Origin: Raillietiella orientalis
Lineage: Eukaryota
Reading direction: 5' to 3'
Assembly (NCBI GenBank): GCA_036172245.1
Contig: JAYWIR010000003.1
Coordinates: 3,410,001 to 3,474,000 of the forward strand
DNA: 64,000 bases
The translations under genes and the position numbers were made by a program. Under the pieces are notes generated by a model. That model searched no databases. It worked only from the letters and a program-made list of their open reading frames with translations, and was not told the origin of the DNA. Shown one piece after another: positions 563 through 38,300 of the stretch; positions within the stretch are counted from its first letter, which is position 1; the number at the start of each line of letters is the position of its first letter.

Positions 563-880
563 ATGGAAGATGAAAGCAATGGGATTAAATCTCCAAGTCC
601 CCATGTTTCTAGATCTAGCACACCAGCAGGCAGCATGAAACCTATCCCAAATAATACAGAAGCAGATTCAACTACCATGTTATCTGGCTTACCCAGTATT
701 TCAAAATCTCAAACAAAATTTTGCCAACTATTAGCAGTTCTAGAAGACATGGGTCAGGCTATTCGACCAACTTATGCTGGCAGTAAGAGCAGTGCTGAAA
801 GACTGAGGCGAAGCATTATTCATGCAAGAATTTTAGTGAAAGAATGTCTGATAGAAACAGAGCGCTGTGCCAAACAATAA
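563..880 (+). CDS. CDK2AP1: Cyclin-dependent kinase 2-associated protein (CDK2AP1/DOC-1 family), 105 aa
   Basis: The C-terminus [51 protein letters not shown] matches the recalled family motif ([41 protein letters not shown]). The N-terminus is Ser/Pro-rich. AATAAA lies at 1031-1036, and a plausible upstream acceptor (tttttcattttgcag) lies near 367. Confidence 0.93.
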
Positions 881-6928: not shown

Positions 6929-9900
6929 TCATTGCGCGGTTTCCCCGGGCGAGAAGAGGTCTGCGCCTTGTTCCTGTCGGGAGAACGCACTCCCCAGGGC
7001 GTCATGACGATCTTGGGCAGGTGGCGCCACCGGTCTGCGAGGCGGTGGCAGCAGTACTGAGTGCGGGTAACGAAAACGACAGCGGTGACGACGCCAGAGG
7101 CAAAAAAGGGGGGGGGAGGGAGGGAAGAACAATAAACACGAAACCAAGCAACTGAACATGCAAGTCGTCGTTTAATTTTCTGGTTTTTTCTTTCTTTTTC
7201 TTTGTTCAACCTTCCACACGCTCGAGAAGCACGAGTGCGAACTGGTTGTCGTGCGCGTTTCCGGGAGAAAACTAAGGGCTAGGGAATCCTCCACTCCAAG
7301 GAGGAACCCTCCCTCCCCCTCCACCGCCGCCAATTGACAGGTCGCGCGGAACCCACGCGGCTGGTGAGTTGGAAAGGGTCTCGCTCTTGACCGGGGCCGC
7401 ATGGGAACGCATCTCGATCCCTCTCCTTCGCAGGGGTATTTTCCTCCCTCGAGAGAAACTCTTTCCTGGAACCCCCCCGATTTCTTCTCGACTCAAACAG
7501 GAGGGCAGACGGGAGAGGGAAGCGGTTCCCCTGGAAGGTCTGCACCTCACCCGGAGGGCGGGAAGGACGACGCAGCCTCGGGTCTTTCCCTTCCCTGCTC
7601 CAGGGAGAGAGCACGGACTCTCGCGAGATTGTTCTTCCCCCTTCTCCCCCCTCCGCTGCTTGGAGGTCGAGCGCACGGGAGATGCGCGGCAGTCGCCTAC
7701 CGCTTTGTGGTCGATGTGAGTCCACCAGTAGAGGGCGTTGAAAATCAGGAAGAGCACCGGGAACATCAGGCGGCAAGTGGCGTCGATAGTCTTCCCGATT
7801 TCGCCATGGGGGTCGCTTCCCGGTCCCGGAGGTCTTCCCAGGGAGACGGATGGGTGGAACCCAGCGGCGCGGCTCCAGGCACTGCCTCCTGCCTTTCTCT
7901 TGCAGAGTGGGAGAGGCATCTGGCGTCTCTTCACCGCCAGTGTGTACACCACCGGCGACTCCAGGAAGGCCATCATGATGAAGCCTGTCACCGCGGTGTT
8001 CCAGGTATCCATCGACTTGACGAAGTTCACCTGGAAGAGCGGCAGCAGCAACTCCGGGCAGCTTGGCTCTTCAAACGCATACACGACTTTCCCTTGCCCC
8101 ATCTTTCCCTCAAAGAGTGCCCTCGTGACACGGAAAAGCCCCCAGGGGCAAAATTCTACCGAAGCGAAGGACGGGGACGAGATCGACCAGTAGGCAAAGG
8201 GCAGATGACAGAAGCGGCGGCGGTGGCGGAGCTGAGGAGGGGGCGTGAATGAGGAAGAGATGAGCGATGCCGGCAGCAACAGCAGTGGTGGTGACGAAGA
8301 CGACGATGGCGAAGAGGAGGAGGAGGAGGAGGAAGTGGAAGGGAGGAGATAGAGGAGGCAGGAAGGATGAAGAGGAGGAGGCGGGAGGGGGGAGGAGGAA
8401 GAAGAAGAGAAAAGGAGGAATGAAGGAGGAAATGAAGAGTAGAGGGGATGATGGCGTTGCTCACAGCGACGGAGGCAGAAGAAGGACGTGTGCGCTAGGG
8501 GGAAGGTGGTGGTGCACTCACCTGGGCAATGTCCCTGTTGGCATACTGCATGAACGTGAAGTTGGTGATGAGCGCCGTGAGGCTGAGGGTGAGTCTGGCA
8601 CCGATCACGTGGACGTCCAGCCAGAAGGGCACCCAGCTGGCGATGACGAGCAGCACGGACGGCACGAAGGCGTCGAACAGGTAGCTGCTCAGGATGCGTT
8701 CGAAGACCAGCTCGACATCCAGGGAGCTGAGGAGCAGAGGAGAGGAGGCGGAGGGGGGGAGCGCGGAGGAGTCTTAGTGCCCCCTTCCCGTCGGGAGGGT
8801 TTCCTCCGAGAACTGCAAGGACCTGCGAGAGGAGGATGCAGGCGACCCCGGGTGCTTCCTCTTTCCTTCCTCCCGGAGACCAGTAGGACTCGCGGTTGGC
8901 TCGGGAGCCACGTCCCGAGGTGCTCGAGGAAGGGACGGGCCGAGTCCCTGCGTCCCGTCCGGGGACTGCGGCCTCAGCAGACCTGCCCCTCAGTGCTTCC
9001 GGGACTCAGGGGAGTCGTTGGCAGGGTAGTCCCTCGCTCGGACGGCATCTTCCGGTGCCCGGTCCCACCTTTCCTTCTCGGGAAGGCTCCCTTGTGTCCT
9101 CCCGCCCCCACCAAGTCGCCTTGCGGGAGGTCGGTCGACCCTTCCACCTCTTTCCCAGGCCCGCCCGAGGGCACACGCCGTCTCAGCTGCTGCTGGTCTA
9201 AGCTTCCGGGTACGCTCCAGTTGAGTTGCCCTCCCCTTTCCTAGCCAACTAGGGGTGTGGCTGGAGGGCTCAGAGTGCCTCCCACGGGAGGACACTTCGA
9301 CGCCTACGAACTCCATCTGCTGGACCGCGATGACACGATGGCCGCCTCGCGAGTCACGCAAGCTGGTCTACCCGCCCGTCCACCAGGGGACTCCGGCAGC
9401 AGCGGTCCACTGCCGAGGAGCCGCTTGCCTGCTTCCTGCCGGAGAAGAACGATAGAAAGTTCCATGCTGTCCAGTCGCAGCCCTCAAGCGCACGTCCGGA
9501 CCTTTCCTTGCTCTTCCCCCCCCCTTCTCTTGAGTTCCGGAAACGCCCTGCGGACGCTTATCCCGGGGGCGACTGTAGACCCGACAGATCAGCCTCCGAG
9601 CGCTCCTCCCGCGGAAAGAAAGGGGGAGGGAGAAAGATAAAGGCCAAAGCGGCAGCTCCTGGGGGACTAGCGCTCCCTCTCGGGCGGGCGGGGAGAAAAT
9701 GCCAGCGGCGGAGCGAGAAGCGCGCGCACTACCTGTAGTTGGCCACGTCAAACACGTAGACGGAGGGCTGCAGGGCACGGGCGCGCCGGAAGGTGTAGCC
9801 AGATACCTGGAGGTCCTCCGTGACGACGACGCTGGACGGCGCCCGCCGCCCGCGCGCGTGGCGCTCGTCGAGCTCGGAGATCCAGCGCAGCCGCAGTCTG

Positions 9901-12900
9901 CTGACGTTGTAGCTCCCTGGAAACGCCCGGTCATGGCTCGCGGGGGCAGGTGATCGGCGTGGGCGCGCTCACAGCTCTGGATGGTCAGCGGGCAGATCTG
10001 GATGTCCATCGGGTAGTTGTGCAGGTCGACCTCGCAGCCGAGGACTGACTCGATCCTGGAAAGAGAGAGGGGGAAGACTGTCGTCCTACACCACCGGGGG
10101 CAAGGTAGCAGAGGACGCGAGCTTCGAGGGAGCGCCTCAGGGCGTCTCTGCTGTGCCGCTCTCCGGGAAGGGGGCTTTCCGCGGACCGCTACGCCGTGTC
10201 TCCTCCGCTCGGCGACGCGCGATGGGAGAGGGCGTGGCATCCGTCTCCCCCAGACCAGCCACACAAACCCCAGAAGGATGCACACAGGAGAGAGCCGTGT
10301 GAGTCCGAGAAGCCGCCCGCACCTGGCCCCCGAGAAGGGCGGCTCTCGCGAAGAGTCCCGTCCCCATCTCTCGCGCTGCTCCGCGCGGGAAGTCAGAAAA
10401 GGGGTAGCCGTCTCCCTCGACCAGGTTCCCCCCCCCCCACGACGCCTGTGCTCGCGTCGTGTCTCTCTCTTCTTGGTCGCTGCCGCTGCCGTCGTCGGCG
10501 AGGCAGAGAACCAAAACCGCCCACCCCGAGACGCTGCGGCGTTCCGCTCGTCTCCCGGAGCTCAGCACTCCCTTCGGGCAGTGCCCACGAGAGCAACCGC
10601 TGGTCGTCGCGGTCGCTGACCCCCTGCCAATCCGCATGTGACGTCCGCAGAGAGCAGCAGTAGCCCCATGCGGGAGGAGCTCCTCCTGGGTCCCGGGGAA
10701 GAAGGGCCGGACTGAAAGCTACGGTTGAGGGCAGGAGGGACGGGGCGGAGCCCGCCTTCCCGCATCCTCGCGACGGTCCTGGAAGAGCTGCCCCTCCTCG
10801 CTCGTCTGCCTTCCTTCCTGAAAGGCTGGAAGGGAGGAGGGAACAGGGAATCCCTCGCACGCTACCTGGGCGCTCGACGGCCTCTGGTCAGAGGAAGGTC
10901 AGAACGCTCACTCGGGATGGATCTGGCAGAGGCGCGCCGAGCGCTATTTCGGGGGAGCTCGCGCCGTTCTCGGCCGGACCCCACCCTCTCCCTCTCCCGT
11001 CCGAAGCAGGAAGGGAGAGGAAAGGAGCGAGAAAAGATGCCACCCTGAGGCGCTCCATTCCTTGGCGTTTCCTCCCTCCGCGGGCTCGCGGGATGCAGTC
11101 AGGAATGCCAGCAGCAGAGCAGTAGAAGTGCCACCCATCCTTCACCTGCGTACCCCGAGGGCCCGGATTCGAATCCCGGGCCCGGGGGATTCACCCATCT
11201 GCTTCTACCTTGCTGCTCGAGGCCGAGTGGCTGCGTCCGTCCGAGGTGCCGCGCGCTTCCCCGCTTCGTGCTCGGCAGCAGCGCGGTCGCCGACTGGTGC
11301 CTCCGGGTCGCCGCACGTCACGGCGCGTTCTCCTCCACTGGCAGCTCCGCGAGGACACATGCAGTCCGCATCACTCCACCTGCATCTCTCTACCACGCGA
11401 ATAAGGAATAAGGAAGGAAAAAGGGAAGAGGAAGGGAAGAGGAGGAGGCGAAGGAAGGGAAGAAAAAGAGGAGGAAAAAGAAAAGCAGAAGAGGAAGAGG
11501 AAGAAGAAGAAAAGCAGAAGAGGAAGAGGAAGGTAAACACGGAGTTGCAGCAGCGAACAGGTTGCTGCTGCCGCCGCTGTCTTCCCTTCTTCAGGAGGGA
11601 TCTCGACGGAGCGTCCGGCCTCGCGGTTGCCGCCCGACCCTTTCCCTGTCTTCTCGGGCGCCTTCACCCACCTGAGCACGTAGAGGACGGTGCTGTCGTT
11701 GAAGATGCGGATAAACACGTTCTTCTGGGGTGCATCCAGGACCTCTGAGGAGATCTCGTTCAGGAAGTAGACCGCGGGAACCCAAATCTGCTCGGGGAGG
11801 ACTCCTGTAATGGAGGAGGGGGGGAGGACACGTGAGGTTTCTCTCGAGCATCGAAGCCTCCCCTCGCAGTCGGCTTGCGGGGGTCAACCGGGAATGGCGG
11901 CCCCCCGCACGGAGAGCTCGCAGGGCAGGGCTGTCGGGGCGAGACGCTTGCTGGCGAGGGTTCGCTCCGTGACGATCGGGGGACAGGAGGATAGGACAGG
12001 GGACCTGATCCCTGTCCGACCCTCCTGGACTGGCAGTCTCTCTCCGGGGGCTCCAGAATTATTTTTAAAATTTTTGCGCGCGCAGCGGGAGGCGCCAGAG
12101 GGGATCTCTGAGGGCGAGGAACGGCAAGGGAGCGAGCGAGGGCATGCTCGCATCCATCTGCCGCGGACCCGCAAGTCGATTGCGGCGCGCCCAAGCCGGC
12201 GGCTGACGCAGATGACCTCTCTTCTGGACCTCTTCTGGAGGAGAAAAGGGAAGGGATAAGAAGGCAGGGAAGAGAACGGAAGAAATTGTTGGGGAGAAGA
12301 TCGCCATCGCAGGGTCGTGGACTTGAGAGGGCGGCAGCTGCGAATGGGAGCCAGCCTCCGCCCCCTTGTCCCTCTTTCCAGCCCTTGTGAACGCTCTTTT
12401 TCAGCGGGTAGGTCGGCTGCGGATGCTGGAAGAAGGAGAAAGAAAAAAAAAGAAAAATCTCTTGCTCCTTCGCCCTCTGTCCTCCTGGTGACATCTTTAC
12501 AGGCGGCATAAAAGGGCCCGGATTCTTAAGACATCACCCACGCCCAGCAGGGAGACTCAGGGGGGGTCAGGTTCCGACGGCATAGGTTGCCGCAGGCAGA
12601 CGGAAGCTGCGGAGGAGTCGCAACGGACGGTAGCGCCTCGGCATCGGCGGGACGCAGGAGCTTGACACGAATTCCCCCCTCCCCTCCCTCTACGGACGCG
12701 CCTTCCATCGAGCCGCGCGCCCGAGAGGACGGAAACTCCCTGCGTCGCGCCAGGAGATGGCGCTAGAAAAGCTCACCTTCGATCTCCGGGGTCGTGGTGT
12801 TGCTCCAGTTGAACCTGCCATCTGTCCACACCATCAGGAGAGACCACAGCAGGCTGTACTCCTACGGAAGAGGGGGAATACGGGCAGCGGGGAGGGAGTG

Positions 12901-22284: not shown

Positions 22285-23214
22285 ATGAACGCTTCTAACG
22301 TGGACCTGCTTCTCGGCGCCGCGTTCAACGCGGCGGTCTACCCGTTCGAATACGTGCAGAGGCTCATCCAGATGGGGGCGGAGCCGGAGCTGCCGAGGTG
22401 GCGCGTCTCCTGGTCGGGCAAGCCGTACCTGGCGCTGCCCAGCACCCTCGAGTACCTGCAGTTCATCGTCGCGTACGACGGGCTGCTCGGCTGCTACCGC
22501 GGGTGCGTGCCGTGGTTCGCCTGGCACTACCTGCACAAGATCACGTACGAGCGAATGATCCTCTGGGGAGCGTCTCGCCGGAAAGCGGAAGCCGAGGCGG
22601 ACGAAGGAGGCGGAAGCGAAAGGAGGGACGCGTTCATCCGGGATATGCTGTGGGACCTGTGCAGCACGTGGACGGCGACGGCGGCCGCGTACCCGCTGCG
22701 GCTGGTGACGCTCCGCTGCATGGCCCAGTTCGTGGGCAGGGAGACGACCTACTCCTCCCTGACCTCCTCCATCTCCGACGTGGCCCGGAAGCACCCCTTC
22801 TGGGGGTTCTACGCGGGGTTGGTGCCCTGCCTGCTGGGGGACGCCCTCACCGTCCTCCTGTCCCACACGCTCAAGTTCATGCTGGACACGCTCGCCGGAA
22901 GCAAGCCCGGCAAGAAGGAGAAGCTGTCGGCGCTGCTGGCCAACGCGCTGCTGCGCTCCTACGTCTGTTACCCGTTCGAGGTCGTCGCGACCAACATGGC
23001 GGTCGTCGACTCCGGGCTGGCCATCGGCAGGCCGCCTTACATGCCGCTGTACCCCCACTGGACGGGCTGCTTCGAGCACCTGCGGCAGACGAACCAGCTC
23101 AGGAGGGGAGCATCCTTCTTCCCTCGGGCACACACGTGGCCGAACAGGCGCCTCGAAGAGGTCGCGAGCGGCTCCAGCCAGTACCACGCGCTCCACCTCT
23201 TGCGATCGCTATAA
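22285..23214 (+). CDS. MTCH2: Mitochondrial carrier homolog (MTCH1/MTCH2 family, SLC25-like), about 309 aa, no intron in the carrier ORF
   Basis: YPFEYVQRLIQMGAEP...GKPYLALPSTLEYLQFIVAYDGLLGCYRG, YPLRLVTLRCMAQFVGRETTYS, GFYAGLVPCLLGD and YPFEVVATNMAVVDSGLAIGRPPYMP match recalled MTCH repeats. ATG sits in GCCATG context. AATAAA lies at 23239-23244. Paralog assignment (MTCH1 vs MTCH2 vs invertebrate Mtch) cannot be resolved here. Confidence 0.9.
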   Translation: MNASNVDLLLGAAFNAAVYPFEYVQRLIQMGAEPELPRWRVSWSGKPYLALPSTLEYLQFIVAYDGLLGCYRGCVPWFAWHYLHKITYERMILWGASRRKAEAEADEGGGSERRDAFIRDMLWDLCSTWTATAAAYPLRLVTLRCMAQFVGRETTYSSLTSSISDVARKHPFWGFYAGLVPCLLGDALTVLLSHTLKFMLDTLAGSKPGKKEKLSALLANALLRSYVCYPFEVVATNMAVVDSGLAIGRPPYMPLYPHWTGCFEHLRQTNQLRRGASFFPRAHTWPNRRLEEVASGSSQYHALHLLRSL

Positions 23215-24322
23215 GGGTCGTCGGGAGTTGCAGTCTCCAATAAACGGACGGACGCGCGGAAGGCGAGCAGAGGGCGAGGAAAGGGGAGGGGAGAGGGACG
23301 GGGCTGCGAACCCTGGTGGCTGCGGACGCGCATCCGCCGCCCGGAGGCGATCGCTGCGTTCCGTTTGCACCGTGCCTGCTCTTGAGCGAGCGGCTGGCGC
23401 ATCCTGGAGCTTCAGGACGGAAGGGGAGGTGAGAAAAGAGGGAGAGGGAGGGAAGGGCTGGAAGAATCATCATCATCACCACCACATCATCGGAAAGCTC
23501 ACTCAGGAAATGTCCAGGAGACTCATCCATGGCGACTGACAGGCATCCGCCGTCCCCTTTAGCCCCGCTTCCCCTCTTCCGCGTCTCCGGCCTTATGGAG
23601 CCGGTGGGACGGCAGGACTTCCTGCCGCCACCGCCGCCGCCGGTTTCACTGCCGGCAGACGGCGATGCGTGCCCCTCTCGATGGGGTTCTCCCCTCGGGA
23701 TGTTCACCCTCCCTCAGAAGGGAGCTCGTCTCCCGTCTTACGTGCCTCGGCATGGCCTACTGGATACGGTTGTTCCGAGTTCCCCATCCCAGGCGGCAGT
23801 GAGTTCGCGTCCGAGGGGGAATGGTAACCGGCCTGCCGGGCTGGTCCCGGAAGGAAGGGGAGGCCGAGGGAAAAGAAGATGGAAGAGGGGGAGGGGGCTA
23901 GGCGAGAGTGGGAAAGGAGGGGACGCGGTCAAGGAATGAGGGAAAAGGGGAAGCACAACGGAGAGAGGAGGACGAAGGGCTTTCCCGAATTCCTAGGGGG
24001 AAGAGGCTTTCACAGGAGGAACCTGTGGAAGCGGGCGTGACCTCTTCCTCTCTTGAGGGTCTTTCAGCATCCCCCGTTCAGGATGACTCCACTGGAGCAC
24101 CTGGAAGGTGCCCGGTGAGCAGGATGGCTCATCCCGGCCTCCCGTCACTTTCCCGGCACCTGCTGTCGGCGATCAGAAGAATCCTGGCACAGGGATAGAG
24201 CGCCAGCGGGAAAAGCCGCGCGTGGGGAAGGCGTGAAGGCTGGGGGAGGCAAGTGGGGCCGAGCCGGCTCGAAGGGGCTTCGCAGCAGCACGCGCGCGAC
24301 CTTCCTTCGGCTACTCCTGGGC

Positions 24323-24428
24323 CACCATGGGCGCTACGGATACAAGGGCGCCCGGGACCACCATGGCTACTTGCAGGACGGGCACAACTACGGCGACCTG
24401 GACCACGGAAACTACGGGAAGGTCCACC
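24323..24428 (+). pseudogene. Partial decayed duplicate of exon 3 of His/Gly-rich gene A
   Basis: Aligns by eye to about 26154-26287 (HHGRYGYKGARDHHGYLQDGHNYGDLDHGNYGK vs HHGHYGHKGARGHHGYSQDGHNYG[HQGGHHDYG]DQDHDNYGK). It has a 27-nt deletion and no evident signal exon or splice sites. Confidence 0.75.
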
Positions 24429-25489
24429 GGCACGACGGGCGCCCCTTGGCCATCCCTCGTGCCCACCTGCGCAGAGGCCACCCTCGTCCTTTCGCACGCA
24501 CGTGCGAGCGCGCGCAGACGGGAGAGAAGACGCGTGCGCCGCTGTTTCCTGGCGGCGGCAGTCCATTCGATCGGCCTGCCTCTGCCGATGCAACGGGGAT
24601 CGCGGCCCGGCGGCCTCTACCCCTTCCTGCCTCCAAGGAGGCAACCGGAGAAAGCAGACGCTGGGAAGCGGGACGACTGAGCTTCTCTGGGAAAGAGATA
24701 ACAGTGCTGGGCTGTCGCGAGGCGCCCGGGAGGTCAGCAGCAGCAGAGGTGGTGTGCGTCAGACGGAGAAGCGGAAGGACATCTCATCCTCTGGCAGATT
24801 CCCTAAGGCATCCCCTTCCTTCCCTGTTGATGATTTTCCGTACCTAGAGACTATCGGTACCTCGATCAGGAAGGATGAGGGAGGGAGGAAGAGAAAGAAG
24901 GGAGAAGAAGGGAGAGAGAGAAAAAAGTGGAGTGGGAGGAAGAGGAATGAAGGAAGGAAGAGGAAGAAGAGGAGGAACGGAAGAATGGATCAGGAGGAGA
25001 AGGAAGGGGAACGGCCTTGTCCTCGCCACAACGATGCGTCCAGTGGTATGGAAGGCGCAGTTACGCCTCTACGCTCGGACAGCGCCAAGGCCGTCCCGCT
25101 GCCTCGGAAGAGGCGGCCGCATGGTCGGCCGTTGCAAAACGCGGGGCGATCAACTTTCACCCGCCCTCCCGCGTTGCCTAACGGACGCCGACCTGTGGAT
25201 AGGAGGGGGCTCTTTGCGACAGCTCGGTCCCGGCCTTCTCCGAGGGAGAAGGCGGGAGAGTGCAAAAAGAGAGGGGAGGAGGAGGCCCTTCCCGGCCCTG
25301 CTTTCCTTCCCCCCGCCCGTCCCCCCCCCTTCGCCTCTCAAGGGTGGGGGAGCAAGTCGTCGCGGATCTCCCTCGGAGAGCGCAGCCGAGGGTGAAGAGA
25401 CGGGGGGTCACGTGGTCACGGTGAAGTTCCTCCGGAGACACCGCACCGTCGTAATGACCGCCGCTCCCGGGGGCCGTTGCGTCAAAGCG

Positions 25490-25502
25490 GCGGGTATAAA
25501 AG
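25490..25502 (+). promoter_or_regulatory. TATA box of His/Gly-rich gene A
   Basis: GCGGGTATAAAAG; TATAAAA starts at 25495, 98 nt upstream of the ATG at 25593. Confidence 0.75.
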
Positions 25503-25592
25503 CGTCGCGCGTCGCCGGAGGAACCGACCGCCAGCGACCGGTGGCTACCGCAGCGTCGACCTCAGCTCTTGAAACCGCACCAGAACGCTGCC

Positions 25593-26624
25593 ATGGCTCT
25601 CCCGTCACCCTTCGTGAGTACCGTCGGAGGGAAAAGGGTAGGGGGTTCTAGGGGCCCGCTCCCGGCGGTCTGACCTCGGAGGCGAGTCCCGCCCCCTCCG
25701 ACGCCCTCAGTTCGCCCCCATCTCCGGCACCCCTCAGGTTGCTTCCCTCTGCCTCTCGTGGATCTGCCTGCTGGGAGCCGCCTCCGCGCAACGCAGCCTC
25801 CTCCTCCTCCGCATCCCGCCCCGGAGCGACTCCACAGGCCTGGGGGCGCCCGCCGTCGCCAGCCGCCTCCTGGCCACCAACGCCTCTGCGACCGACCTGG
25901 AACCGGCTGCCACCGGCTACGGTGAAACATCTGACGCCTGGCGGCGGCGACCCGACCTCCGACGCGACCCGGCCCCTCGGCCGCCTCTCCCTGCTTTTCA
26001 GGAGGGTACGGCGGGTACCACGGCGGCGGCGGAGACGGTCATTACGGCGGCCACCATGGCGGTCACCACGGAGGTCACGACCAGGGCGCCCACCACGGCC
26101 ACTATGGGCAGCAGGGCTACCACGGCCAGCACGACCACCACGGGCACCAGGGACACCACGGGCACTACGGACACAAGGGCGCCCGGGGCCACCACGGCTA
26201 CTCGCAGGACGGGCACAACTACGGGCACCAGGGAGGCCACCACGACTACGGCGACCAGGACCACGATAACTACGGGAAGGGTCACCACGGGTACTACCGT
26301 GCGGAGTACCGGCACCACGAGTACGGCCATCACGACCGCGGACACCGCAACCACGGCCACCACGGCCGGCAGTACGGCGACAGCCACGGCCGGAAGGGGT
26401 ACGGCCACCACGACCAGCACCAGCACTACGGCGACCACGGCCACCACGGACACCACGGCCACAGGGACAATTACGGCCACCACGGCCACCACGGCCACCA
26501 CGGAGGACAGCACCACCGCGGGTACGGCCACCACGGCCACCAGGGCCACAGAAACTACCATGGAGGCAATCACTACGGCCACCACCAGTACCACCCCCAC
26601 CAGGGCTACGGCTATCACCGGTGA
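25593..26624 (+). CDS. Secreted His/Gly/Tyr-rich low-complexity protein A (about 275 aa, 3 exons)
   Basis: Exons 25593-25613 (MALPSPF|gtgagt), 25738-25921 (VASLCLSWICLLGAASA-QR...TDLEPAATGYG|gtgaaa) and 26002-26624 (GYGGYHGGG...GHHG repeats...GYGYHR*), with consistent phases. It has a signal peptide, an upstream TATA box and AATAAA at 26701-26706. Confidence 0.88.
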
Positions 26625-29600
26625 ACCGGACTCGTCGTGCTCAGCGGCCAGTCGGCCGGGTTCCCCCTCCCCGTACCAGCGCGACCGGAGTCAGCGCTCG
26701 AATAAAAGGGGGATGGTGGTCACACAAGGGCGAGGCCTGCGTGGGGGCGCGTCCTCCTCCGCTTCCCGGAGGAAGGGCGGGTGAGGGAGGGGAGTTACAG
26801 AGCGCGGGGCAGCGGGGGGAAGGGGGTGGGAGGAAGGCGATGAGGGAGGAGGATCTCGGCTCTCCTTGCCCCTTCTCCCTAGAGGAGGAGGAGGGGCAGC
26901 GCCGCCCGTGACGCACCCCTCCGGGAAGGCCGTTCCGTCACGCTGGCGTGAAGGAAAGGCCGCGGAGAAAGGCAGAGGAGGTTGCGCCAGGAGGTGGTTC
27001 ACGGGAGGCGCACACGTATCAACCAATTTCTTACTATAAGTCCTCTCATCAACTTCAACCCTATAATTACTATCATGACACTTGTTTAACTCTTCACCAT
27101 AAAATTTACCACCTTCATCAACAACAAACCAGCAAATACTTCCCTTGTCAACTCTCCCCTCCCTTCAGTATAGTCCCTAGCCCCGACTGGAAGACTCCCC
27201 CGTCCTCCCTTAGATGAGGCCTACCAGAAGAGACTCCTCCTGGGGATCTCTTCCGGAAGCCGCCGCCGAGCGCGGGAGCCCCGCTCTTCGCGTCCGTCGG
27301 GAGAGGCCCGGAAGAGCGAGAGAGGACCTTCGGGGGTCGCTGCGCTCTCGTGAGGGCTCAGCCGTCCCTCACGAAGGGGACTCTTCCGCGGGTGAAGGCG
27401 GAGACGGAGGGTGCAGCTCAGAGAATGCAGCTCCTGGCGGGTCCTCGAGAGACGAGGGAGGGACCCAAGAGAAGGGGAGGAGACAGAAGGCATCGGAGAG
27501 GACGCGAAGGGCCGTCTCCAAAAGAACAGGCGCCCAGACAGCGGTCCCCTCCCCCCGGTGCTCCTCTCAGAGTTACGGGTCGAGGACGCAGGAGTTCCCG
27601 GCTTCCCGCTGCCGACCCAGTTGGATCCCATCCGGCAGAAATGGAAAAGCGCCTCGGGAGAGCTCGGGAAGTCGGCAGAGGACAACCCTCTGCGCTGTGG
27701 GGTCATGGGCAGTTGAACCGGATCGAAGTGATGTTTCCTTGGCCATATGATGGGCAGTTTCAGGAGGGGCTGGGAAAACCTCTTGCACGGCTGCACCCTC
27801 TTCACGCGCGCAGAGAGGGAGAGTGGCTGGTTTCATCGCGGGAGAAAGGCGAGGGGCTCTCCTCACCCACCGGGGGCACCCGCGGGCAGGGGGAAACAGC
27901 GAGAGATCAATCCTTTCTCGGTTGTCCCGCCTGCCTCCGAGACCCTCCGTATAAGGGAGGAACCGTAGCACGAGCGAGGTGGGGGAGGGGGGCAACTCCG
28001 GCTCAGGGGAGGAGGCGCGCATTTCCGGGGGACCCTCTGATCCGGATCGTCTCTGACACTGACGGCCCGGGAGTCCCCCCTTCCTCCCTGCTGGCGCGCC
28101 AAGTCTCACCCCCTACCTCCCTCTCCACCTCCCGAAGGGCTCGCCGCGTCCTCTCCCGGACGCCTCTATCAGCGGAGCGGGGCGGAGGAAACCGAGGCGG
28201 ACCCTCTGATGGCATCTGCCCTCCGGAGCGCTTGCCCCTCGCGCGCTGCGCCGCCTCCGCCGCCCTCGGACCTGGCATCCGGACCGCTGGGATCTTCTAC
28301 CGCCGCCGACTCTCTCGGGAAAAATGTTCTGGAGGCACCCGAGGCTCTTTCGAGGCCGGCAAGGAAGGGACCCTCCAGAGGACCCTGCTGACGAGGGGAC
28401 GGGAGTCACCGACGTCCTTCACTGCGACAGGAGGCAGAAGGAGGAGAGCCTGCAGGGTTCTCGGGGAGGAGGCCCGGAAGGACCGCGTCTTCCGGTTGCT
28501 TTTCGACTCGGAAGGCCTCCACTGCATGCGCCGAAAAAGGGGCGGCCTTTCCAGGACCTCTCGGGTGTCTCTGTGGGTCTTCTTCCCAGGACAAGCCGCT
28601 TTCCTCTTCCTCCTGCCGCTCTCCCCTGGCCTGAGGACAGGGATCGCCTCTGCCTTTACGTCGCCCTTGGATACGGAGGTGACGTACCGCTGAGAGGTCG
28701 GGTCAGACTTCCCTGCTGTGTTGTCCACCCTTCCCGACGAAACGGCTGGAACGCATCCGGGAGAGCTGACAGGTTCCTGGAAGGGAGATGGAGTTGACAA
28801 GCGACTTTTAGGAGAGAGCGGGGCCTCCCCTGGAAGGCGCACCCTTTCCTCCACCCAAATACCGCGCGCCTCATTGCAGCGACCTTCGTGACCCCTCCCT
28901 CCGGGAGGTCCTGCGGGTAGCCTCCGATTCCCCATAATTCCCCATGAGAGGCAGAGAAGCATTCGGAACTACACTGAACAATAGCGGATAGTAGGGAAGG
29001 GCTACTGGAGGCGTGGAAAAAAGGGTGCTTCGGGTCAGCGCGTGCACCGGATGGTGTCTCTCTTACGAGTGCTGTCCTCTCACTTCACTTTGTACTCCTT
29101 CTCTAAAAGGAGTGATTTCCATCTTCTCACCAGTCCTCGCGGTCCGAGCAAAGAGTCGGATGCTGCTTCATCTGACTCTTCGGGGTAAGGAGGGCGAGCG
29201 ATGGAAGTCTTCCAGAAACGCCACTTGGAGAGGAGGAAGACAAGAAGGAAGAGGAAGGGGAGGAGGAGTAGGAGGAAAGGAAGAAGAGAAGAGAGGGAGA
29301 GAGGAGGAGAAAGAGGAAGGTAGGAAGAGGAGGAGAAAATTGGGTGGAGTTTCTTCCCTTGCCTTGCGGTGGCCACCTGACCACTCCATTCTACAAGGAT
29401 CCAAACTCCTAGAAGGGATGACGCTTTTCCAAAAAAACTGGAGATCCCGGGTCTGCTTCCGCCTCCGGCTCACCTTCCCTATGGCTCCTTTTCTTTCACT
29501 ACGGATAATTGAGGGGGAGGGCTTCCATCGACCCCCTGGGGGAATTTCGTTTTCCTGCAGAGGCGACCCCGCCATCAGAGAAGTCGCTCTGAAGGGAAAC

Positions 29601-30615
29601 GATCCAGCGAAGCTGCTCGGCAACTGACTTCCGACTTCTCGTCTGGGACGCTTGCCCAGTCCTCCGAGCAGGGAACTTCGGACTCGCAGAAGTGATGGTG
29701 GTTCAGGGGCGATCAAGAGGACTCCTCGGAAGAAGACGCCGGGAATCTTTTACCTCGTATTCGGGACAACTGCCTCGGAGGGGACGGCGCCACCATCTCT
29801 CTCTGTCCCGATCCTTCGCGAGAGAGAATTTTCCGGGAAACCGAGAAAAGTGCGCGGTCTGAAACACATGGTTGCCACGGGCGACCGAACAGCACCTCGC
29901 TGGACGCCTGTAGGAGAGCGCTCTCGACCCCGCCCACGAAAGTACTTCTGCCGCCCGACCAGTGGGCAGAGAGGGGTGTACCGAGAGCTTCTACCCCTCA
30001 CGGGTCCTAAAGGAGCTTGCGAAGCGGGAAGGACTCCTGGGAAAAGTGTCCCGCCTGAGGACTCCTCGCGGGAACGTCGCCCTCACGGAAACATTTCAGG
30101 ATCGCCGCGGCCCCTTCCTTCCCTCCTTCCCCAATTCATCCGAAGTGCGTCCTCCCGTGGGGTAGGAAAGGAAGAGAGCGACCTGAAGCTCGGCCTGCGA
30201 CCCTTGATCTTCGCCAGAGGTCGCTGGAGTCCTGGAGCTGCCTCCCGCTCTTGAAGCAGACGAGGGCCAGGAAGAAAGGGAAGGGAAGGGAGATCCGCTG
30301 CTCACCCTCAGGTCGCGGCCGCGCGACGACGTGGGAGTGAGCGCGTGAGGGAGGAAGGAGGGGCGGAGTGGGGCGGGCGAGCGCAGGACCTTTCTCTACG
30401 GAAACGCTCCGACGGCCACGGCCGGTCTCCCCCACCTCCTGGTCCGGGCGCTCGCGTGCCGGCCCATTTCGCGTGCGGCCGGGCCAAGGCTGACCGCGTG
30501 ACGAAAGCCCCCTCTTTCCCGAGGGCAGTAAAAGCCGCCGTCTTCGTCGCCCCGAGGCGCCCTGGCGAGCGGGTACAAAAGACCGCTCCCGGACGGCGTC
30601 CCGGCACCCGACGAG

Positions 30616-31427
30616 ATGCTTGCCGTCGCTAAACAGCGCGTCTTTCCCACGTCGGTGACAACGGCGGCGGCGGCGGTGACCGCGGTGGCTCTTTGGGCGG
30701 CGACGTCCGTCCTTGCGGATGGACGCGCGCATGCGGCCTCCCTGCGGAAGGAGGGCGACATCCTGGACACCTCGGAGACTCAGCACGGAGGTGAGGGAGC
30801 GGTGGGGAAGGGAGGAGGAGGCGGAGGGGCTCCGCTCACCGCCTGCTGACGTTCGCTCCAGGTTACGGAGGCCACGGAGGTCACGGAGGCTATGGAAGCG
30901 GCTGGGACGGTGGCCACTACGGAGGACACGGCCGTGGGTACGGCGGCATGGACGGCAGCTACGGCTACTGGAATCAGCATGGTCAGCACGGAAACCGGGG
31001 ACACCACGGCCAGCACGGAAACCGAGGTCACCACGGTTACGGTCAAGACGGCCACCAGTATGGAAACTACCAGGGCCACGGCAGCCAGGGACGCTACGAC
31101 CACGGCGGACATGGCATGGGCCGCGAGGGCTACCGCGTGGAGGAATACCGGCACCACGAGTACGGCAACCACGGGAAAGGCCACAGGCAGCACGGCCACC
31201 ACGGGCAGCATCACGGAGGGAACCACGGGCGCCATGGTTATGGTCACTACGACAAGAACGACCACGACGGCTACCGCGGGCACCACGGGAGCTATGGAAA
31301 TCACGGAAAAGGAGGGCATCATCGCGGGTACGGGCACCACGGCCATGATTACCACAAGGGCCACCACAACGACCACGGATACGGCCACCACGGTCATCAC
31401 GGAAACCATCACCATGGATACCACTGA
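30616..31427 (+). CDS. Secreted His/Gly/Tyr-rich low-complexity protein B (about 246 aa, 2 exons)
   Basis: Exon 30616-30790 (MLAVAKQRVFPTSVTTAAAAVTAVALWAATSVLA-DG...DILDTSETQHG|gtgagg) splices in phase 1 to 30862-31427 (GYGGHGGHGGYG...EEYRHHEYGNHGKG...HHHGYH*). A TATA-like GCGGGTACAAAAG lies at 30569-30581. Confidence 0.85.
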
Positions 31428-32899
31428 GCGAGAGCTCTCTTACCCTTCCTCCATGCAGAGGAATAAGGACGGGAAAGACCGATCCCGGTTGTTCCCCGTG
31501 TGATTCCCCACGAGCACTGCATGTTGCCAATACAAATCACTTTGTTCTCTTAGAAACCACTCTTTGCGCTGCCTTTCTTCGGTCCTCTCTTGCGGAGCCC
31601 AGAAATCCTCTAGAATAAGGGAAACTCAGGGAAAATGGGGGAGGAAGGGACTGAACACGTAGGTCGGACATCCATATTCTTCGGAATCGTATCCCTGTAG
31701 CACCCCCCCCCCCCCTACCCCACGCAGACACGCCGACCAACTCACTCGGCGTGTCTGCGTGTCCACACCCATCAGAAAGGGAGGATAAGGGAGGCGTTCC
31801 CCTCGATTGTCATCTGGTGGCGGGCCGCATGACGGGAAGTGCGGAACCGGAAATCCGACAGGGAGAAAACGAAAAGGAGGTCCGATGGGGAGCTGCACGA
31901 TGGTGAGCAACGCGTCAACCAGGGAAGAAGGTGCACCTCAGACGAGACAAGTGGGCTGACATAGTTGCGAGCGCAGTCTGGGAGAGAGAGATGTCTCCCC
32001 ACAGGAATCCACCTTTCATTCACAGGGGCGGAGCCGAGCTGCTTCTCAGGAGCCCCTAACACCGTTCTTCGGCGCTCGCTGGAGCTCTTTGTTGAGGGAT
32101 CACGCAGTCCGCTCGAAGGTTCGGCAGGGATGGAAGTTCTGGGAATGATCAGACTGATTCTACGAGTCCCTCCCTCCTTCACAGGTGCATCCTGGTAATT
32201 CGGAATGGTCCCTGGGAGATTCGGCTTTCTTCCGAAAGTCTGTCGTGGCGGCAGCCTGGTGCGCGTCCACGGGGAAGAGAAGGCAGGGAAAGTGGAGTTA
32301 TCCAACCGTGGGATGTTGCACGAATCTTGCGGGGGATGCTGGTAAACAACCGAACGAGTCCAGGGTCACCTGCTCTTGTCGCGTGCCGCTTCACGCGTTC
32401 AGATGGCGCGCGCTTGGTAAAGCACTGATTGTCAACGATCACTCACGTGGCACACGAGCTCGGAATCAAGCACGGGCATTGTTGGTGGGCGCCTCGATCT
32501 CCATAGTAACGGCATGGTGTGTGCCATTGTTTAGATCCCCTGTTGATAACGAAGACCACCCATGGAGACGGCAGCTGTGCTTCACGGTTGGGTTGACGAG
32601 CTCATCTCTTCGTCAGATGCGTCTGGGCGTTCTTAAGGAAACCATGGGGCGTTTCCCGGAGAAAGGTGATATACTCTGGTCGTCACAGAAGTGCCCATGG
32701 AAATGTTGAAAGAAATACCGACGCAAGACTGGTTACAAGTAGGATGTGCCCATGGTATGCAACTGAAGACGAATGACCACTTGAATCGGCTCCTACTTCA
32801 TGCTGCCTAAGGGCAATTTTCCCTTGCCCTGGAAGCGGAGGATTTGGTGGAGAAGTGAGAAGCGAAAGGGATCAATTTCCGGGAAGGAGGAGAGGCACT

Positions 32900-34060
32900 G
32901 TTTTTACGGAGCACTCTGAAAATGGTCCACCCGATGAAGACGACGTCTCCACAAGAGGAGTTGAAAAGGAAGTACTGTGCTTACTTCACTGGGAAGTTTT
33001 GCACCATCGTCGAAGTACGGAAATTTCCAAATAATGTCGGTGCAGACAGTTCCCCACTGGTATTCCGTCCACAGCTCCGGAACATCCGCCATCTATAAGA
33101 CGTTCTTTACTCATCCTAGGAACCCACTTTCCAGGAATCCCCGTTTCGGATTTGCGGTAGCTAATGCGGCGGAATCATTGACACGGAGAAGAACTTCCTG
33201 GAGCAGCTCGGATCTAGGTGACCTCTTGCTCCCAAAAGGACGCCGATGCTACCATATACCGAAACTTGCAACGGGATGGACCCTTTCAGAAACGTTCCTG
33301 GTTCACGTCCCTCTCCGAGTGAAAAAGGTGGACGACTACTAACGATCTGGAGGAAACGCTTCCGAGGCCACCTGAGTCATCCTTCTCCATGATGTGCCTG
33401 TGAACCCAACTCACGGCTATGACAGATCAACCCACCGCGCGCGCGCGACACACTTCAAGCACTCCGCCGCAACTCTGTTCAGCGAGAGGCGTCCTAGGAG
33501 GGATGAGATGGAGGCTGCGAGGCTCGAGGTGACACTGCCTTGAAGCTCTCGAGAAAGAGGGAAGCTCTGGAGGGAAAAATGGAAGCAGAGACCTTCCCTC
33601 CCTTCCCCCAGGAGTCAAAGGCGTAAGCCATGCGGAAAAACGTCATCCATCTAACGTGGCGGATTGACTGCCGACGGAGACTCCTGAGACGGCAGCAGGT
33701 TTCCGGACAGAGTAGACTTCTTCAGCAGCCCTTCCCGAAGAACCTCCGGGGGCTATGAGAAGGTGATCGTGAAGGCGGGAGGAAACGACACTGCGATCAT
33801 CCAGCTCAAGCGTCCGGTTCCAGCGTCGCAGAATCCTTCCTTTCCCGCGAATCTGCGGGAGGCAGGAAGCACCGGAACTGGAGGTTTGCCTTTGCTCCGG
33901 GAAATTAAGATCACGGAGACGTCTCCGACTTCTTCCGCATCTGGGGGAGAGGTCGGATCTCCCCCTTTTATGCTCACGAGCTCCCGGCTAAGCGCCCTGA
34001 GCTGGTTGAAGAGTCTTTTCCGTGCGGGCGCCGGGAGCAAGATAACGGAAAAGAAGGGAA
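32900..34060 (-). mobile_element. Highly decayed non-LTR retrotransposon (LINE) reverse-transcriptase remnant
   Basis: Frameshifted motifs occur in RT order on the minus strand: RLFNQL..VSVILISRSKGKPP (resembles V.PIPK.GK), KKSTLSGNLL (resembles KST.TNLL), AYAFDS (resembles KAFD), LLRVND (resembles IYVNDL) and YFDDGAKL (resembles FADDTKL). Confidence 0.45.
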
Positions 34061-34904
34061 GCACGAGCGGCGACGACAGTCAAGTGAGCAAAACACACGA
34101 GCATGGGCGAGGCTGCAAGGTGGGCCGTAGCAGCAACCTGAGGAACAAGTGGGAGACGAAGACTAGCGAGGAGGAGGATGGGAGAGGAAGAGGGTAGAAG
34201 GAGGAAGAGGGAGGAGAGTGAAGAATAGCTAGAACAGAACCAACAGGAAGGAAAGGCTAGAAAAGGACAAGGAAGAAGATGAGATGGTAACAAAAATAAA
34301 CAGCAGCAGACTCAGCAACGAGTATAGCGAAGAGTAGAGAAGCAGAGATGAACCAGGGAGTGGAGGAGGAGGAAGAGGAGGGATAATGCCTGACGCAGAT
34401 AAGTCTGTAGAGTCTCCCCCCTCCCGGGTACATATGGCTCGGGTTTGCACACTTCATCCCTGCCGGAAAGGGGGACCTTCCCTCGGGGGTCCTCGCAAAG
34501 GTCGCTTCCTTCCAAGCTCCCGAGAGCACACACTCGACCTTCGAGGGAGAGAGGAGTGGCACAGTGGCTGCGAGTGCTCTGAGAAATGATGGAACCAGAG
34601 CTCCAGAGCGCTGGTTTGCTAGCTTCTGTCTCCTCCCTCAGCGGGCTACTCCCTCGAAGTCGATAGCCGGAGATGGAGACCGGTCACTTCGATCAACTCG
34701 ACCCGAGAAGGGGGAAGGAAAGACGAGGCAGAGAGAGAAAGAGGGGGAAGAAGGAGTTTCGGGAGAAAATGAGAACTCCGAGTCCCAGCAGAGATGCGAG
34801 TTTTATTCCAGGTTTCCTGGTTATTTCCGTAACCATGCCGACACCACCAAGTCCTTTGCTGCGACAACCATGCTTCTCTACTCACATACATAGTCAGAGA
34901 AGGA

Positions 34905-35365
34905 TCAGTGGTACCCGTGGTGACCGTAATGGTTGCCATGGCCATGGTGGCCACGGTTGTAACCGTGTCCTCCGTATCCATGGTGACCGTGACCTCTGCT
35001 TCCGAACTTGGTCAGAATGTACCCATCGTCGTCGTGGCCGTGATGCCCGTAGTTGCCGTAGCCGTGGTTGTTTCCATAGTTCCCATAATGACCCCCGTAT
35101 CCACCGCCCCCATAGTGTTGAGGATGGTGATATCCTGGAAGAAGAAAAGTTCCCGGAAGATGCACCATCGCTTCTCACCGTAGTACGTGGCGGCAGTCTG
35201 CAGGTCCGAAGGCTGCGACTCCAAACTCTCTCCCTGATCTCGGCTACCCTCAGGCGCCGTGTGGACGCAGTTCAGAAGGCAAAAGAGTGCGAGGACCTGG
35301 AACTTCCATCGTCAACTGCAGCCCGGATTCCTACTCACCACGAAAGCTGTCTTGGAATCCATCAT
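34905..35365 (-). CDS. Secreted His/Gly/Tyr-rich low-complexity protein C (about 124 aa, 3 exons)
   Basis: Exons 35365-35339 (MMDSKTAFV|gtgagt), 35296-35179 (VLALFCLLNCVHT-APEG...SDLQTAATYYG|gtgaga) and 35134-34905 (YHHPQHYGGGGYGGHYG...GHHGYH*). Intron phases (0, 1) match gene A. On the minus strand there is a TATA-like ATAAATA at about 35461-35467 and AATAAA at 34802-34807. Confidence 0.85.
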
Positions 35366-38300
35366 GAGAAGGAACCGTTGTGGAGGAACCGTCAGCGAAG
35401 AAGCCGTTGCTCGTCGGGGGAAAGAGCCGATCTGCTGTGGAATTGTGGAGAGACGGTTCCTATTTATGGAGGGACCAGCAAGTGGTTTCGGGGAGATTTC
35501 CTTGGGTAGGAATTGGAGCGTGATTCCAGGGATCAAGGATTCGGTGGGTGTTTCTCGCTCGTGACCCACGGAGGGTGTCCCTTGCAGCAGTCCCAAACGC
35601 TGAAGAAACCCAGCGGATCCCCAAGAACGTGTTTCGGCAACGCGTTCGCCGAGCGTCAGGGAGCCCGAGGAGTTTCGGGATGGAGTTCTTTGGGGGGTTT
35701 CCAAGGTCCTTTGTCGGATTTCGTCAGCATCTTTTGGCGCCTTTCACCAGTGTCCTTTGGTGCATTTCATCAACGTCTTTTGGCACATTCGCCAACGTCC
35801 TCTGTCAAATTTCACCGACGTCTTTTCTTGCATTTCGAAAGCGTTCTCGGTCCTTCCACCAGTTTTGACGCGCTTTGCCAATGGCCACTGATTCCCAGAG
35901 TCCGCGTCTCCCTTGAGATTTCATGCACGTAGAAACCTATTCTAGATGCCGGAAGGCGGTCTCCCTGTCCCAGTTCCATTACAGGAACCCCCACGAGCTT
36001 TCCCGTCATGCGTCGCGAATTCCCCTTTCAGGAGTGCAACCCTTCGCATCCTTCGGGAACCTTCGCGGAATTTTTTCCCCCCAGGCGAACGTCGACGTCC
36101 TTTTGACGTGAGTCGCAAGCGTCCTTCGACGCGTTTCGACAGAAACCGTTGAGAAATCCTCCCCCCTCCTTCTCCTGGGGCGCATCCCGCTTACAACGCC
36201 CGGCCGGGTCCTCCCGAGTTGCCCGCGCTTCCTCGTAGCAGCGGACCCAACCGTTGGGCTCATCGGAAACACCCATCTCCGAGGCGACTTGGGGATTTCT
36301 GACGGACGCCCCTTCGGTTCACCGACCGCCTCCCCTCTTCCACTTCCGGTTTCCACAAGAAGCGTTTCCCAACGTCGGTGGCCTCCGGGGGCCGCTTCGG
36401 CATTGCTGGGACTCCGCGCCCCTACGAGGAGGGAGGGCTGGCTAGGCTTCAGGAACTCCCCAACTTTCGCTGGGAAGCAGCCTTGGGTGGGCTGCAGCAC
36501 GGAGGGTCACAAGTGCTGCAGCGGCCAAAAAAAAAGGGGGGATCCGGTGGTCGGCCGTGGCACGCCGCTTCCGTTAGGGGGAGGGGACCGAGAAGCGGCT
36601 CCTCTGGCGTGCGACGCGCACCTGGGCGGGGACGCGGTTCCTCTTCGGAAGGCGCCTCACTCTGTGTGGCCTCTCTCGGTCTCGGCTCCTTGCAGACAGC
36701 TACCCCCGGCACGCGCGCGCCTTCCTTGGAAGGAATTCACGCTGTTAGCATCGGGATCGGTGCCTTGCAATACTTGGCCCTCCGTCCCAGGAACGAGCGA
36801 GTGACCGGGAAAGTGGTCGTTGAGGTTCTCCGAGAGCCACAGGTCGGGTAAAGGGGGGCTCTCGCTGGGCCTCGTGACCGCACTCAGTCGGCTCCATGCT
36901 CCCGGAATCTGGGAAGTCCCGGTCTCCTACGGGAATTCCGCCTCGAAGATGACAGGGGAGGCGCCGCCTGGACACGCACGGGACCTCAGCGATGCAGCAA
37001 AGAGAACACAGGAAGACCGGATGTAGCCCGCCCCCTAAGTGCCGTCGGACCGATCACCTACGAAGCACCCAAGGGTGAGACGCGACCGCGGTCTCTTCCT
37101 CCTCCTCCCCGCAAGTGTGCTAAGAAGGGAAGAAGGACGAATTTCCGGCAGGCTCGAGGACGGAATCGTCGGTACTCGGCTGCGGGGATTTTAGAGAGGA
37201 GGCCAATGAGAAGAAGAGGGGAGCTGTAACAGAGTCGGGGTGGAGGGAAGATCAGTCGTGAGGGTGCTAGCAACGCGGATCAGGAAGCCTCGGGTCCTGC
37301 TGCCACAGCCGCACCCCGGGAGGACCTCTGGGAAGAGTGGCATTATAAGTTTGAGCCCCCTCATCCTTCTGTTGCAGCGGTTGTAGGGGCTGCGGTTTTT
37401 GCAGCTCCAGCTGTTTCGCTCTTTCCAGTGGCTGTGCGCCGCTCATCTTTCCAAGTGCTCTGTTTTTTCTCTGCCCACATGTGCAGCTTCCACTCCTGGA
37501 AGCAATGAGAAGGTGCAACTCGCGCCTCAAGTGCCGACGCCGACCCTTCATCCCTCTGTTGAGGTCAGGCGCGAGGACTCCGAGATGCGAAATCCGATGG
37601 AGGAGGAAGGGAGAAAGGGAGGAAGTAGAGAGTAAAGGAGGAGGAAAGAGAGTAAGAGGGGGAGGAGGGGGAAGAAGAAAGGAGGAAGAGAAGGTGGAGG
37701 AAGGGAGAAAGGGACAGCTCCTTCCCTAGTGGGCACCGTGCACGCCTATTTACTGTAGATAAAAGTCCTGGAGAGACCGAGTGAACAAAATATACTCTCG
37801 GGAATCACGACCTCTGAGAGACCAGCCCATTTCATCCTCATTTAGTCCTTCCACAAGTACACTCTATCCCAAGATGGCACGCCGCTCCCACAAGCCCCAC
37901 TGCCGCATGTCTTTGTTTATTTATTGATCCTCTCTCCACTCCCTACTGAAATCGGAAAATTCATAGGAGAGGTGAAGGGAAAAGGGGGCAATGTTATTGG
38001 GGGGGGGGGGTTATGTGGACTATGCCCTTCTTGAACAAATGTTTCAGAAGGGATCACCCAGTCATCTCCTCGTAGCTATGGGGGCGGATCGCTGGCGCGG
38101 ATCCCCCGCGCGGAGGGATGCTGCGGAACTGTGGACGCAACACAGGATCTCACGATCACTGCAGCTGGCTCAGGTCCATCTTTGACCGGAGAAACGGTTG
38201 TGGCAGATTCCTGAGATGCTCCCCAGGGTCCAGGTGTCAAGTTGAGTCTGTCCCTGAGTGGTAAGGCAACTGTTTCGGGAGCAGTCCGGACCTCCTGAAG

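Follow-up and report, generated by a model that had tools for sequence, protein, structure and literature searches.

Background

The described systems closest to the locus studied here are the His-rich proteins of nereid jaws, squid beak and insect cuticle, and the locus itself is a cluster of three spliced genes (A, B and C) and one gene relic in a 64,000-nucleotide stretch of Raillietiella orientalis DNA (contig JAYWIR010000003.1, positions 3,410,001 to 3,474,000 of the forward strand). This stretch is called the window below, and all coordinates are given in its own numbering. Nvjp-1 of Nereis (Alitta) virens is a secreted protein of 38 kDa, described as intrinsically disordered, with more than 25 mol% His, 35 mol% Gly and abundant Tyr and acidic residues, and Zn hardens gels made of it (PMC9465683). 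Nai11527, a nereid jaw-tip protein of N. aibuhitensis, is made with a signal peptide and contains 29% Gly and 16% His (PMC13120676). The squid beak proteins (HBPs) are soluble when their His residues are protonated; near neutral pH, contacts of His with Tyr and of Tyr with Tyr make them phase-separate, and cross-linking follows (PMC9999432). The His-rich cuticle proteins of Bombyx are cross-linked by laccase-2 with N-acetyldopamine (NADA) or N-beta-alanyldopamine (NBAD), with His acting as the nucleophile (PMC8062583). Finally, tool materials rich in Zn or Br occur in crustaceans and other arthropods, where Zn probably sits on imidazoles and Br on phenyl rings; the accessible sections of that paper name no metal-carrying arthropod protein (PMC8410824).

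Comparison of the R. orientalis locus with known systems

Our favoured reading of the locus, held tentatively and at a little less than an even chance, is that it carries a small lineage-specific tandem family of secreted, disordered extracellular matrix proteins that would change state with pH and become fixed through His-metal or His/Tyr cross-links. As judged from the sequence, the family would comprise A and B, probably also C, and one dead piece of A. The sequence analysis itself establishes how the genes are built, what the proteins are composed of, that their computed charge changes with pH, that A and B are paralogs under purifying selection and that no known domain is recognised. The three proteins are best read as analogues, not homologues, of Nvjp-1, the squid HBPs and the insect His-rich cuticle proteins.

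The basis of the comparison is the large domain encoded by the last exon of each gene, in which Gly, His and Tyr together make up about 70-75% of residues. The His/Gly/Tyr percentages are 31.9/29.5/11.6 in A, 25.5/33.5/11.2 in B and 25.0/34.2/15.8 in C, and inspection of the translations confirmed the Cys-free Gly/His/Tyr composition and the GYH or GYHR ends that had been described in a first, sequence-only reading of this DNA. The likeness to Nvjp-1 in composition that this reading had drawn likewise stands, with 25-32% His, 30-34% Gly, 11-16% Tyr, acidic residues, and N-termini that are hydrophobic by a heuristic measure. Nvjp-1 differs in being an annelid protein and larger than the arthropod proteins compared here (38 kDa against 11-28 kDa computed for the mature forms), and the comparison is one of composition, not of alignment. 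A search of 1.84 billion representative proteins at E <= 0.001 gave no sequence relative of A or B, and we therefore take the likeness to be convergent. Nai11527 is larger as well, at 53 kDa for a partial sequence (45 kDa for the gel band).

With squid HBP-1, HBP-2 and HBP-3 the proteins share low-complexity domains rich in Gly, His and Tyr in which His is nearly the sole titratable residue, together with a switch near neutral pH, of solubility in the squid proteins and of computed charge in ours. The HBPs, however, are built on GHGXY and GAGFA pentapeptides and carry Ala, Val, Leu and Phe, whereas the commonest word in A, B and C is GHHG and each rich domain holds just 3-5 hydrophobic residues (A, V, L, I, M, F or W). 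The insect His-rich cuticular proteins, such as BmorCPR152 with 45% His, are also from arthropods, secreted (as predicted for A, B and C) and very rich in His. Most of them carry the Rebers-Riddiford (CPR) domain whereas A, B and C match no Pfam domain, and Tyr makes up 2.5% of BmorCPR152 compared with 11-16% here (PMC8062583).

Gene models

Genes A, B and C were rebuilt from the sequence (Table 1), and all coordinates and features of the three spliced genes proposed in the sequence-only reading were reproduced, including canonical introns and the phase-1 last intron. All five introns run from GT to AG and have pyrimidine-rich tracts ahead of the acceptor. In every gene the last intron is in phase 1 and splits a Gly codon immediately 5' of a Tyr codon. 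The first coding exon is very short in A (7 codons) and C (9 codons), where a phase-0 intron falls within the predicted signal peptide; this intron is missing from B. TATA-type boxes are found about 92-100 nt 5' of the ATG in A and C. A search for common promoter words returned no 8-mer shared among the 400 nt 5' of A, B and C. The DNA around the cluster has a GC content of 55-66% and contains no N. A 23-nt tandem repeat of about four copies lies at 35706-35826, directly 5' of the gene C promoter.

Table 1. Coordinates of the genes, candidate signals, relic and neighbouring features in the window
Feature	Position	Strand	Description
Gene A	25593-26624	+	3 exons, 275 codons; rebuilt from sequence
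Gene A exon 1	25593-25613	+	ATG and 6 codons, start of signal peptide; donor GTGAGT, phase 0
Gene A exon 2	25738-25921	+	remainder of predicted signal peptide, then linker; donor GTGAAA, phase 1
Gene A exon 3	26002-26624	+	207-residue Gly/His/Tyr-rich, Cys-free domain, end GYHR, stop
Gene A TATAAAA box	25495-25501	+	92-98 nt 5' of ATG; putative promoter element
Gene A AATAAA polyadenylation signal	26701-26706	+	77 nt 3' of stop
Gene B	30616-31427	+	2 exons, 246 codons; rebuilt from sequence
Gene B exon 1	30616-30790	+	ATG, long n-region, Ala/Val-rich hydrophobic core, linker; donor GTGAGG, phase 1
Gene B exon 2	30862-31427	+	188-residue Gly/His/Tyr-rich, Cys-free domain, end GYH, stop
Gene B TATA-like candidate TAAAAG	30529-30534	+	weaker than in A and C
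Gene B TATA-like candidate TACAAAAG	30574-30581	+	weaker than in A and C
Gene B polyadenylation signal AATAAG	31462	+	variant signals only
Gene B polyadenylation signal AATACA	31529	+	variant signals only
Gene C	35365-34905	-	3 exons, 124 codons; rebuilt from sequence
Gene C exon 1	35365-35339	-	two ATGs, 9 codons, start of signal peptide; donor GTGAGT, phase 0
Gene C exon 2	35296-35179	-	signal-peptide core, acidic linker; donor GTGAGA, phase 1
Gene C exon 3	35134-34905	-	76-residue Gly/His/Tyr-rich domain, end GYH, stop
Gene C TATA-like ATAAATA	35467-35461	-	
Gene C AATAAA	34807-34802	-	98 nt 3' of stop
Relic, A-like last-exon fragment	24320-24439	+	120 nt, 40 codons in frame
CDK2AP C-terminal exon	542-877	+	Pfam E = 2.3e-19
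Cys-loop ligand-gated ion channel exons	c. 7275-11883	-	weak to moderate Pfam matches, ligand-binding and transmembrane regions
MTCH-like mitochondrial carrier	22285-23211	+	intron-less, 309 codons; Pfam Mito_carr E = 1e-13
TRAP-alpha-like exon, weak	52449-52907	-	E = 4.7e-4, below Pfam cut-off
Rhodopsin-type G protein-coupled receptor open reading frame	61659-62906	-	intron-less, 416 codons; Pfam 7TM_GPCR_Srw 2e-33, 7tm_1 2.4e-19

Signal peptides were predicted heuristically, from hydrophobicity and small residues at positions -3 and -1. The best 12-residue Kyte-Doolittle mean of the N-terminus is 2.35 in A, 1.93 in B (the weakest of the three predictions) and 2.88 in C, followed in each case by small residues, and no Cys is present C-terminal to the predicted cleavage site in any of the proteins. 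Past the predicted signal peptide comes a non-repetitive linker of 44 residues with one N-x-S in A, 24 residues in B and 26 acidic residues in C. These linkers correspond to the short pro-like segment described in the sequence-only reading, but the N-terminal sequences of the three proteins hold no conserved dibasic processing site that would go with that name.

Paralogy and constraint of genes A and B

Local alignment of A with B scored 617, compared with 346 +/- 20 in 500 shuffles of B, none of which reached the observed value (13.6 standard deviations), and composition-adjusted BLASTP gave E = 1e-7. The two proteins share the non-repetitive blocks GHHGY(S/G)QDGH(N/Q)YG and EYRHHEYG. Over 187 aligned codons they differ at 62, 41 and 93 sites at codon positions 1, 2 and 3, respectively, and 47 of the 106 identical residues are encoded by synonymously changed codons. 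The excess over shuffles and the strong divergence of the third position bear out the view that A and B are true paralogs. Nonsynonymous (dN) and synonymous (dS) divergence by the Nei-Gojobori method are 0.349 and 1.435, and dN/dS is about 0.24-0.30, a ratio that protein-guided alignment of low-complexity sequence pushes down. Together, the sequence comparisons point to an old duplication whose His frame has been kept under constraint.

The last exons of A and B show periodicities of 9, 12, 24, 27 and 36 nt (Tandem Repeats Finder), and the A and B region is open in all three forward frames and in some reverse frames, so that chance open reading frames in a simple repeat needed to be ruled out. 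The alternative explanation would be that A, B and C are not functional genes at all, and that CAC/GGC-type simple-sequence tracts in GC-rich DNA happen to lie beside chance ATG and splice-like sites. Besides the periodicity and the many open frames, the lack of any homologue in protein-set and metagenome searches fits this explanation. We nevertheless consider it very improbable. The third-position peak is seen in the His frame only, together with the synonymous changes and the low dN/dS. All three genes have a stop directly after the common GYH(R) end, the phase-1 intron recurs at the same position, and hydrophobic N-termini, TATA boxes and AATAAA signals are found at the expected distances. 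The His frame is taken as coding because variability peaks at codon position 3, whereas for the other frames the peak would come at position 1 or 2. As read from the sequence, splice sites, start context, stops and polyadenylation signals cohere solely with this frame.

Thr-rich, Arg/Pro-rich and minus-strand Val-rich frames were also considered as coding and rejected, as their codon-position pattern is mismatched and the Arg/Pro frame holds stops. Separately, retention of intron 2 of gene A (25922-26001, 80 nt) would keep the frame of the signal peptide open for 348 codons (25738-26784, plus strand), with a Thr/Ala-rich, mucin-like translation. Retention of the corresponding intron leads to an early stop in B (77 codons) and in C (94 codons), which makes the open frame in A a probable side effect of the CAC/GGC repeat composition.

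Gene C, the relic and the limits of the family

When the composition of the entire window was scanned in six frames, just three such domains came up, those of A, B and C. Gene C is a weaker member of the family. Composition-adjusted BLASTP finds no significant match between C and A or B (E = 0.86 to 3.5), and the alignment scores of C with A and B are 3.7 and 2.0 standard deviations above shuffles. At the end of exon 2, C reads SDLQTAATYY where A has TDLEPAATGY in the same place (6 of 10 residues identical, E = 0.016), and the two genes are alike in their three-exon layout and in the phase and position of the last intron. Gene C thus probably belongs to the family, mainly on the basis of gene architecture and composition. 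The membership claimed for it earlier holds as far as layout and composition are concerned, but in sequence order C resembles A and B weakly. The description of the proteins as graded in length is also only partly apt: the rich domains do differ in length (207, 188 and 76 residues), yet there are just three of them.

The sequence-only reading had also listed a relic, and this fragment can be traced to gene A by its in-frame translation and by DNA identity. Positions 24316-24401 are 87% identical over 86 nt to positions 26147-26232 of A, and tblastn aligns the fragment with residues 50-94 of A at 64% amino-acid identity. The score of A against the relic is 160, compared with 78 +/- 8 in shuffles (0 of 500 reach it; z = 10.8). 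The relic is without a splice acceptor, and tblastn at E < 0.09 reveals no second copy of an N-terminal exon in the window. With no signal-peptide exon beside it, the relic is a young partial copy of A. Possible extra copies at about 13.8 kb and 59.2 kb of the window were weak tblastn matches that on reading proved to be noise.

Searches for relatives

A comparison with Pfam, cuticle families included, matched no family on any of six pieces, namely the three last exons (E <= 10) and the three N-terminal coding exons (E <= 1). Neither Chitin_bind_4 (the Rebers-Riddiford family) nor any other Pfam-A cuticle family was among the matches, in line with the earlier remark that no Rebers-Riddiford consensus is visible. 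A word-index search of 5.8 billion proteins gave no relative among 1550 candidates for the last exon of B or 58 candidates for that of C, and the search among 1.84 billion representatives mentioned above was an exhaustive hmmsearch with an A+B profile. The ESM Atlas held no usable match for A or B, and among PDB sequences there were only three chance-level matches (E = 1.5 to 3.9). In metagenomes, a scan with a degenerate pattern for the GY..EYRHHEYG.H block returned no match, and of 600 stretches that fitted a pattern in a scan for related loci none was confirmed by tblastn. The literature covered on Gly/His-rich proteins of crustaceans and other arthropods, ostracods included and subscription journals apart, describes no such family.

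These blank searches have limited weight because HMMER corrects for biased composition and because close relatives are thinly sampled. An ordinary neighbouring gene, the MTCH-like carrier, has a single relative, at 40% identity, in the set of 5.8 billion proteins, which indicates that the lineage as a whole is thinly sampled. The lineage-specific status assigned to the family in the sequence-only reading fits the lack of relatives in protein sets, metagenomes, PDB and the ESM Atlas. Overall, the kind of protein, a secreted, disordered protein rich in Gly, His and Tyr, is known, and the present family is, as far as these searches show, unrelated by sequence to any known example.

Domain properties, proposed mechanism and alternative functions

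The order of residues in the rich domains is not that of a random mixture of the same composition. GHHG occurs 12, 7 and 4 times in A, B and C, where 1.8, 1.3 and 0.5 are expected, and the observed count was matched in 0, 0 and 3 of 2000 shuffles per protein, respectively. Tyr is followed by Gly in 15 of 24 cases in A, 12 of 21 in B and 8 of 12 in C, again in excess of shuffles. Asp and Glu together number 15 (A), 13 (B) and 3 (C) per rich domain. For the B domain as a single sequence, AlphaFold2 predicted no secondary structure, with a mean predicted local distance difference test score (pLDDT) of 45; this is compatible with a disordered chain, although models built from one sequence count as weak evidence. 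The computed net charge of the rich domain falls from +49 (A), +39 (B) and +14 (C) at pH 5.5 to +0.4, +2.8 and 0.0 at pH 7.5.

This charge switch suggests how matrix proteins of the favoured kind could be assembled. In what follows, both secretion and expression are inferred, and so is each stage of assembly and cross-linking. In an acidic secretory compartment the imidazoles would be protonated and the chains strongly cationic and soluble. Upon release at about pH 7.5-8 the net charge would drop to about zero, and His/Tyr contacts could then drive condensation, as in the squid beak HBPs. The condensate might subsequently be fixed by coordination of Zn or Cu on His, as in Nereis Nvjp-1, or else by covalent bonds that link His and Tyr to quinones or Tyr residues to one another, as in arthropod sclerotisation. 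Candidate sites for such a material include cuticle-type structures (mouthpart or claw tips), the carapace lining and the egg envelope.

Several observations weigh against this account. Pfam reveals no chitin-binding or cuticle domain, which leaves attachment to a chitin scaffold unexplained. The repeats of the HBPs are practically missing, with GHG.Y present 0, 1 and 0 times in A, B and C and GAGFA in none of them, and the near absence of hydrophobic residues means that HBP-like coacervation is not assured. The constraint on A and B is read from a dN/dS that, as stated, the alignment method lowers. The neighbouring genes are unrelated housekeeping and signalling genes, so the locus lends no cuticle context. 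Composition alone would be equally compatible with antimicrobial or metal-buffering proteins. The sequence-only reading is partly supported, in its gene models, the A/B paralogy, the relic, the composition and the lineage-specific status, and the cluster may be regarded as a sound candidate for a metal-binding or sclerotisation system rather than a demonstrated one.

The charge at low pH is also what would be expected of Gly/His-rich host-defence (antimicrobial or antifungal) precursors, in which the acidic N-terminal linker would mask a domain that is cationic at low pH. The layout of signal peptide, acidic or neutral linker and Gly/His-rich domain fits such precursors, and the C domain, with its 76 residues (8.3 kDa), has a size that is found among the Gly-rich defence peptides of arthropods. 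Immune effectors typically form tandem families of this sort, restricted to one lineage, evolving fast and accompanied by a pseudogene fragment. The Gly-rich armadillidins of terrestrial isopod crustaceans are likewise confined to one lineage, and consist of a signal peptide followed by an unstructured Gly-rich peptide; Gly/His-rich peptides of one plant and one beetle are among the references of the same paper (PMC7017220). But the domains of A and B are 188-207 residues long (21-23 kDa), have a charge of about zero at pH 7.5 and contain almost no hydrophobic residues, and a dibasic processing site is not conserved. Armadillidins are short and Arg-rich with 3-7 GGGX motifs, whereas in A, B and C GGG followed by a residue other than Gly occurs 1, 0 and 1 times, at most once per protein, His dominates over Arg, and A and B have several times the length (PMC7017220). 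The dN/dS of 0.24 and the conserved non-repetitive blocks argue for constraint and not for diversifying selection. A defence function is therefore unlikely in our estimate, though it retains a real share of the probability.

The spacing of His residues bears on another alternative, namely that the proteins are soluble buffers of metal or haem in haemolymph, gut or storage tissue, whose His pairs would bind Zn, Cu, Ni or haem without forming any material. His makes up 25-32% of the domains, and A holds 20 overlapping HH, 13 H.H and 24 H..H spacings. The proteins are free of Cys and predicted to be secreted, and Plasmodium HRPII, whose content of His is similar, is a non-structural protein that acts on haem (PMC9465683). 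Chelation has no need, however, of 11-16% Tyr, most of it in YG pairs that exceed shuffles, and the locus shows no sign of a metal-responsive context. We hold soluble buffering to be less likely again than defence. The probability that remains is shared by further secreted roles, an adhesive or a reproductive secretion among them.

A more specific version of the matrix reading can be proposed, in which A, B and C would be independently evolved arthropod counterparts of Nvjp-1, that is, His/Tyr matrix proteins of the heavy-element tool cuticle of crustaceans (mandible teeth, claw tips), with Zn on imidazoles and possibly Br on tyrosine. We give this version a slim chance.

Neighbouring genes

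The other recognisable coding sequences of the window (Table 1) include a CDK2AP exon, exons of a Cys-loop ion channel, the MTCH-like carrier and a rhodopsin-type receptor. The spacers between A, B and C contain no recognisable coding sequence. Purine-rich GGA/GAA tracts lie between the relic and A (24868-25007) and between A and B (29228-29338).

Implications

Among animal materials that lack mineral, some of the hardest are built on secreted, disordered proteins rich in Gly, His and Tyr, and such proteins are also used as models of polymers that respond to pH and metal. In the literature covered here, the sequenced examples come from annelids, squid and insects. Should A, B and C prove to be immune peptides or metal buffers, the family would be an ordinary lineage-specific one. 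If they were indeed counterparts of Nvjp-1 in tool cuticle, defined proteins would be at hand with which to test the chemistry of Zn/Br tool materials in arthropods. As three natural length variants with up to 32% His, the R. orientalis proteins would be direct candidates for the metal-carrying role and simple objects for recombinant tests.

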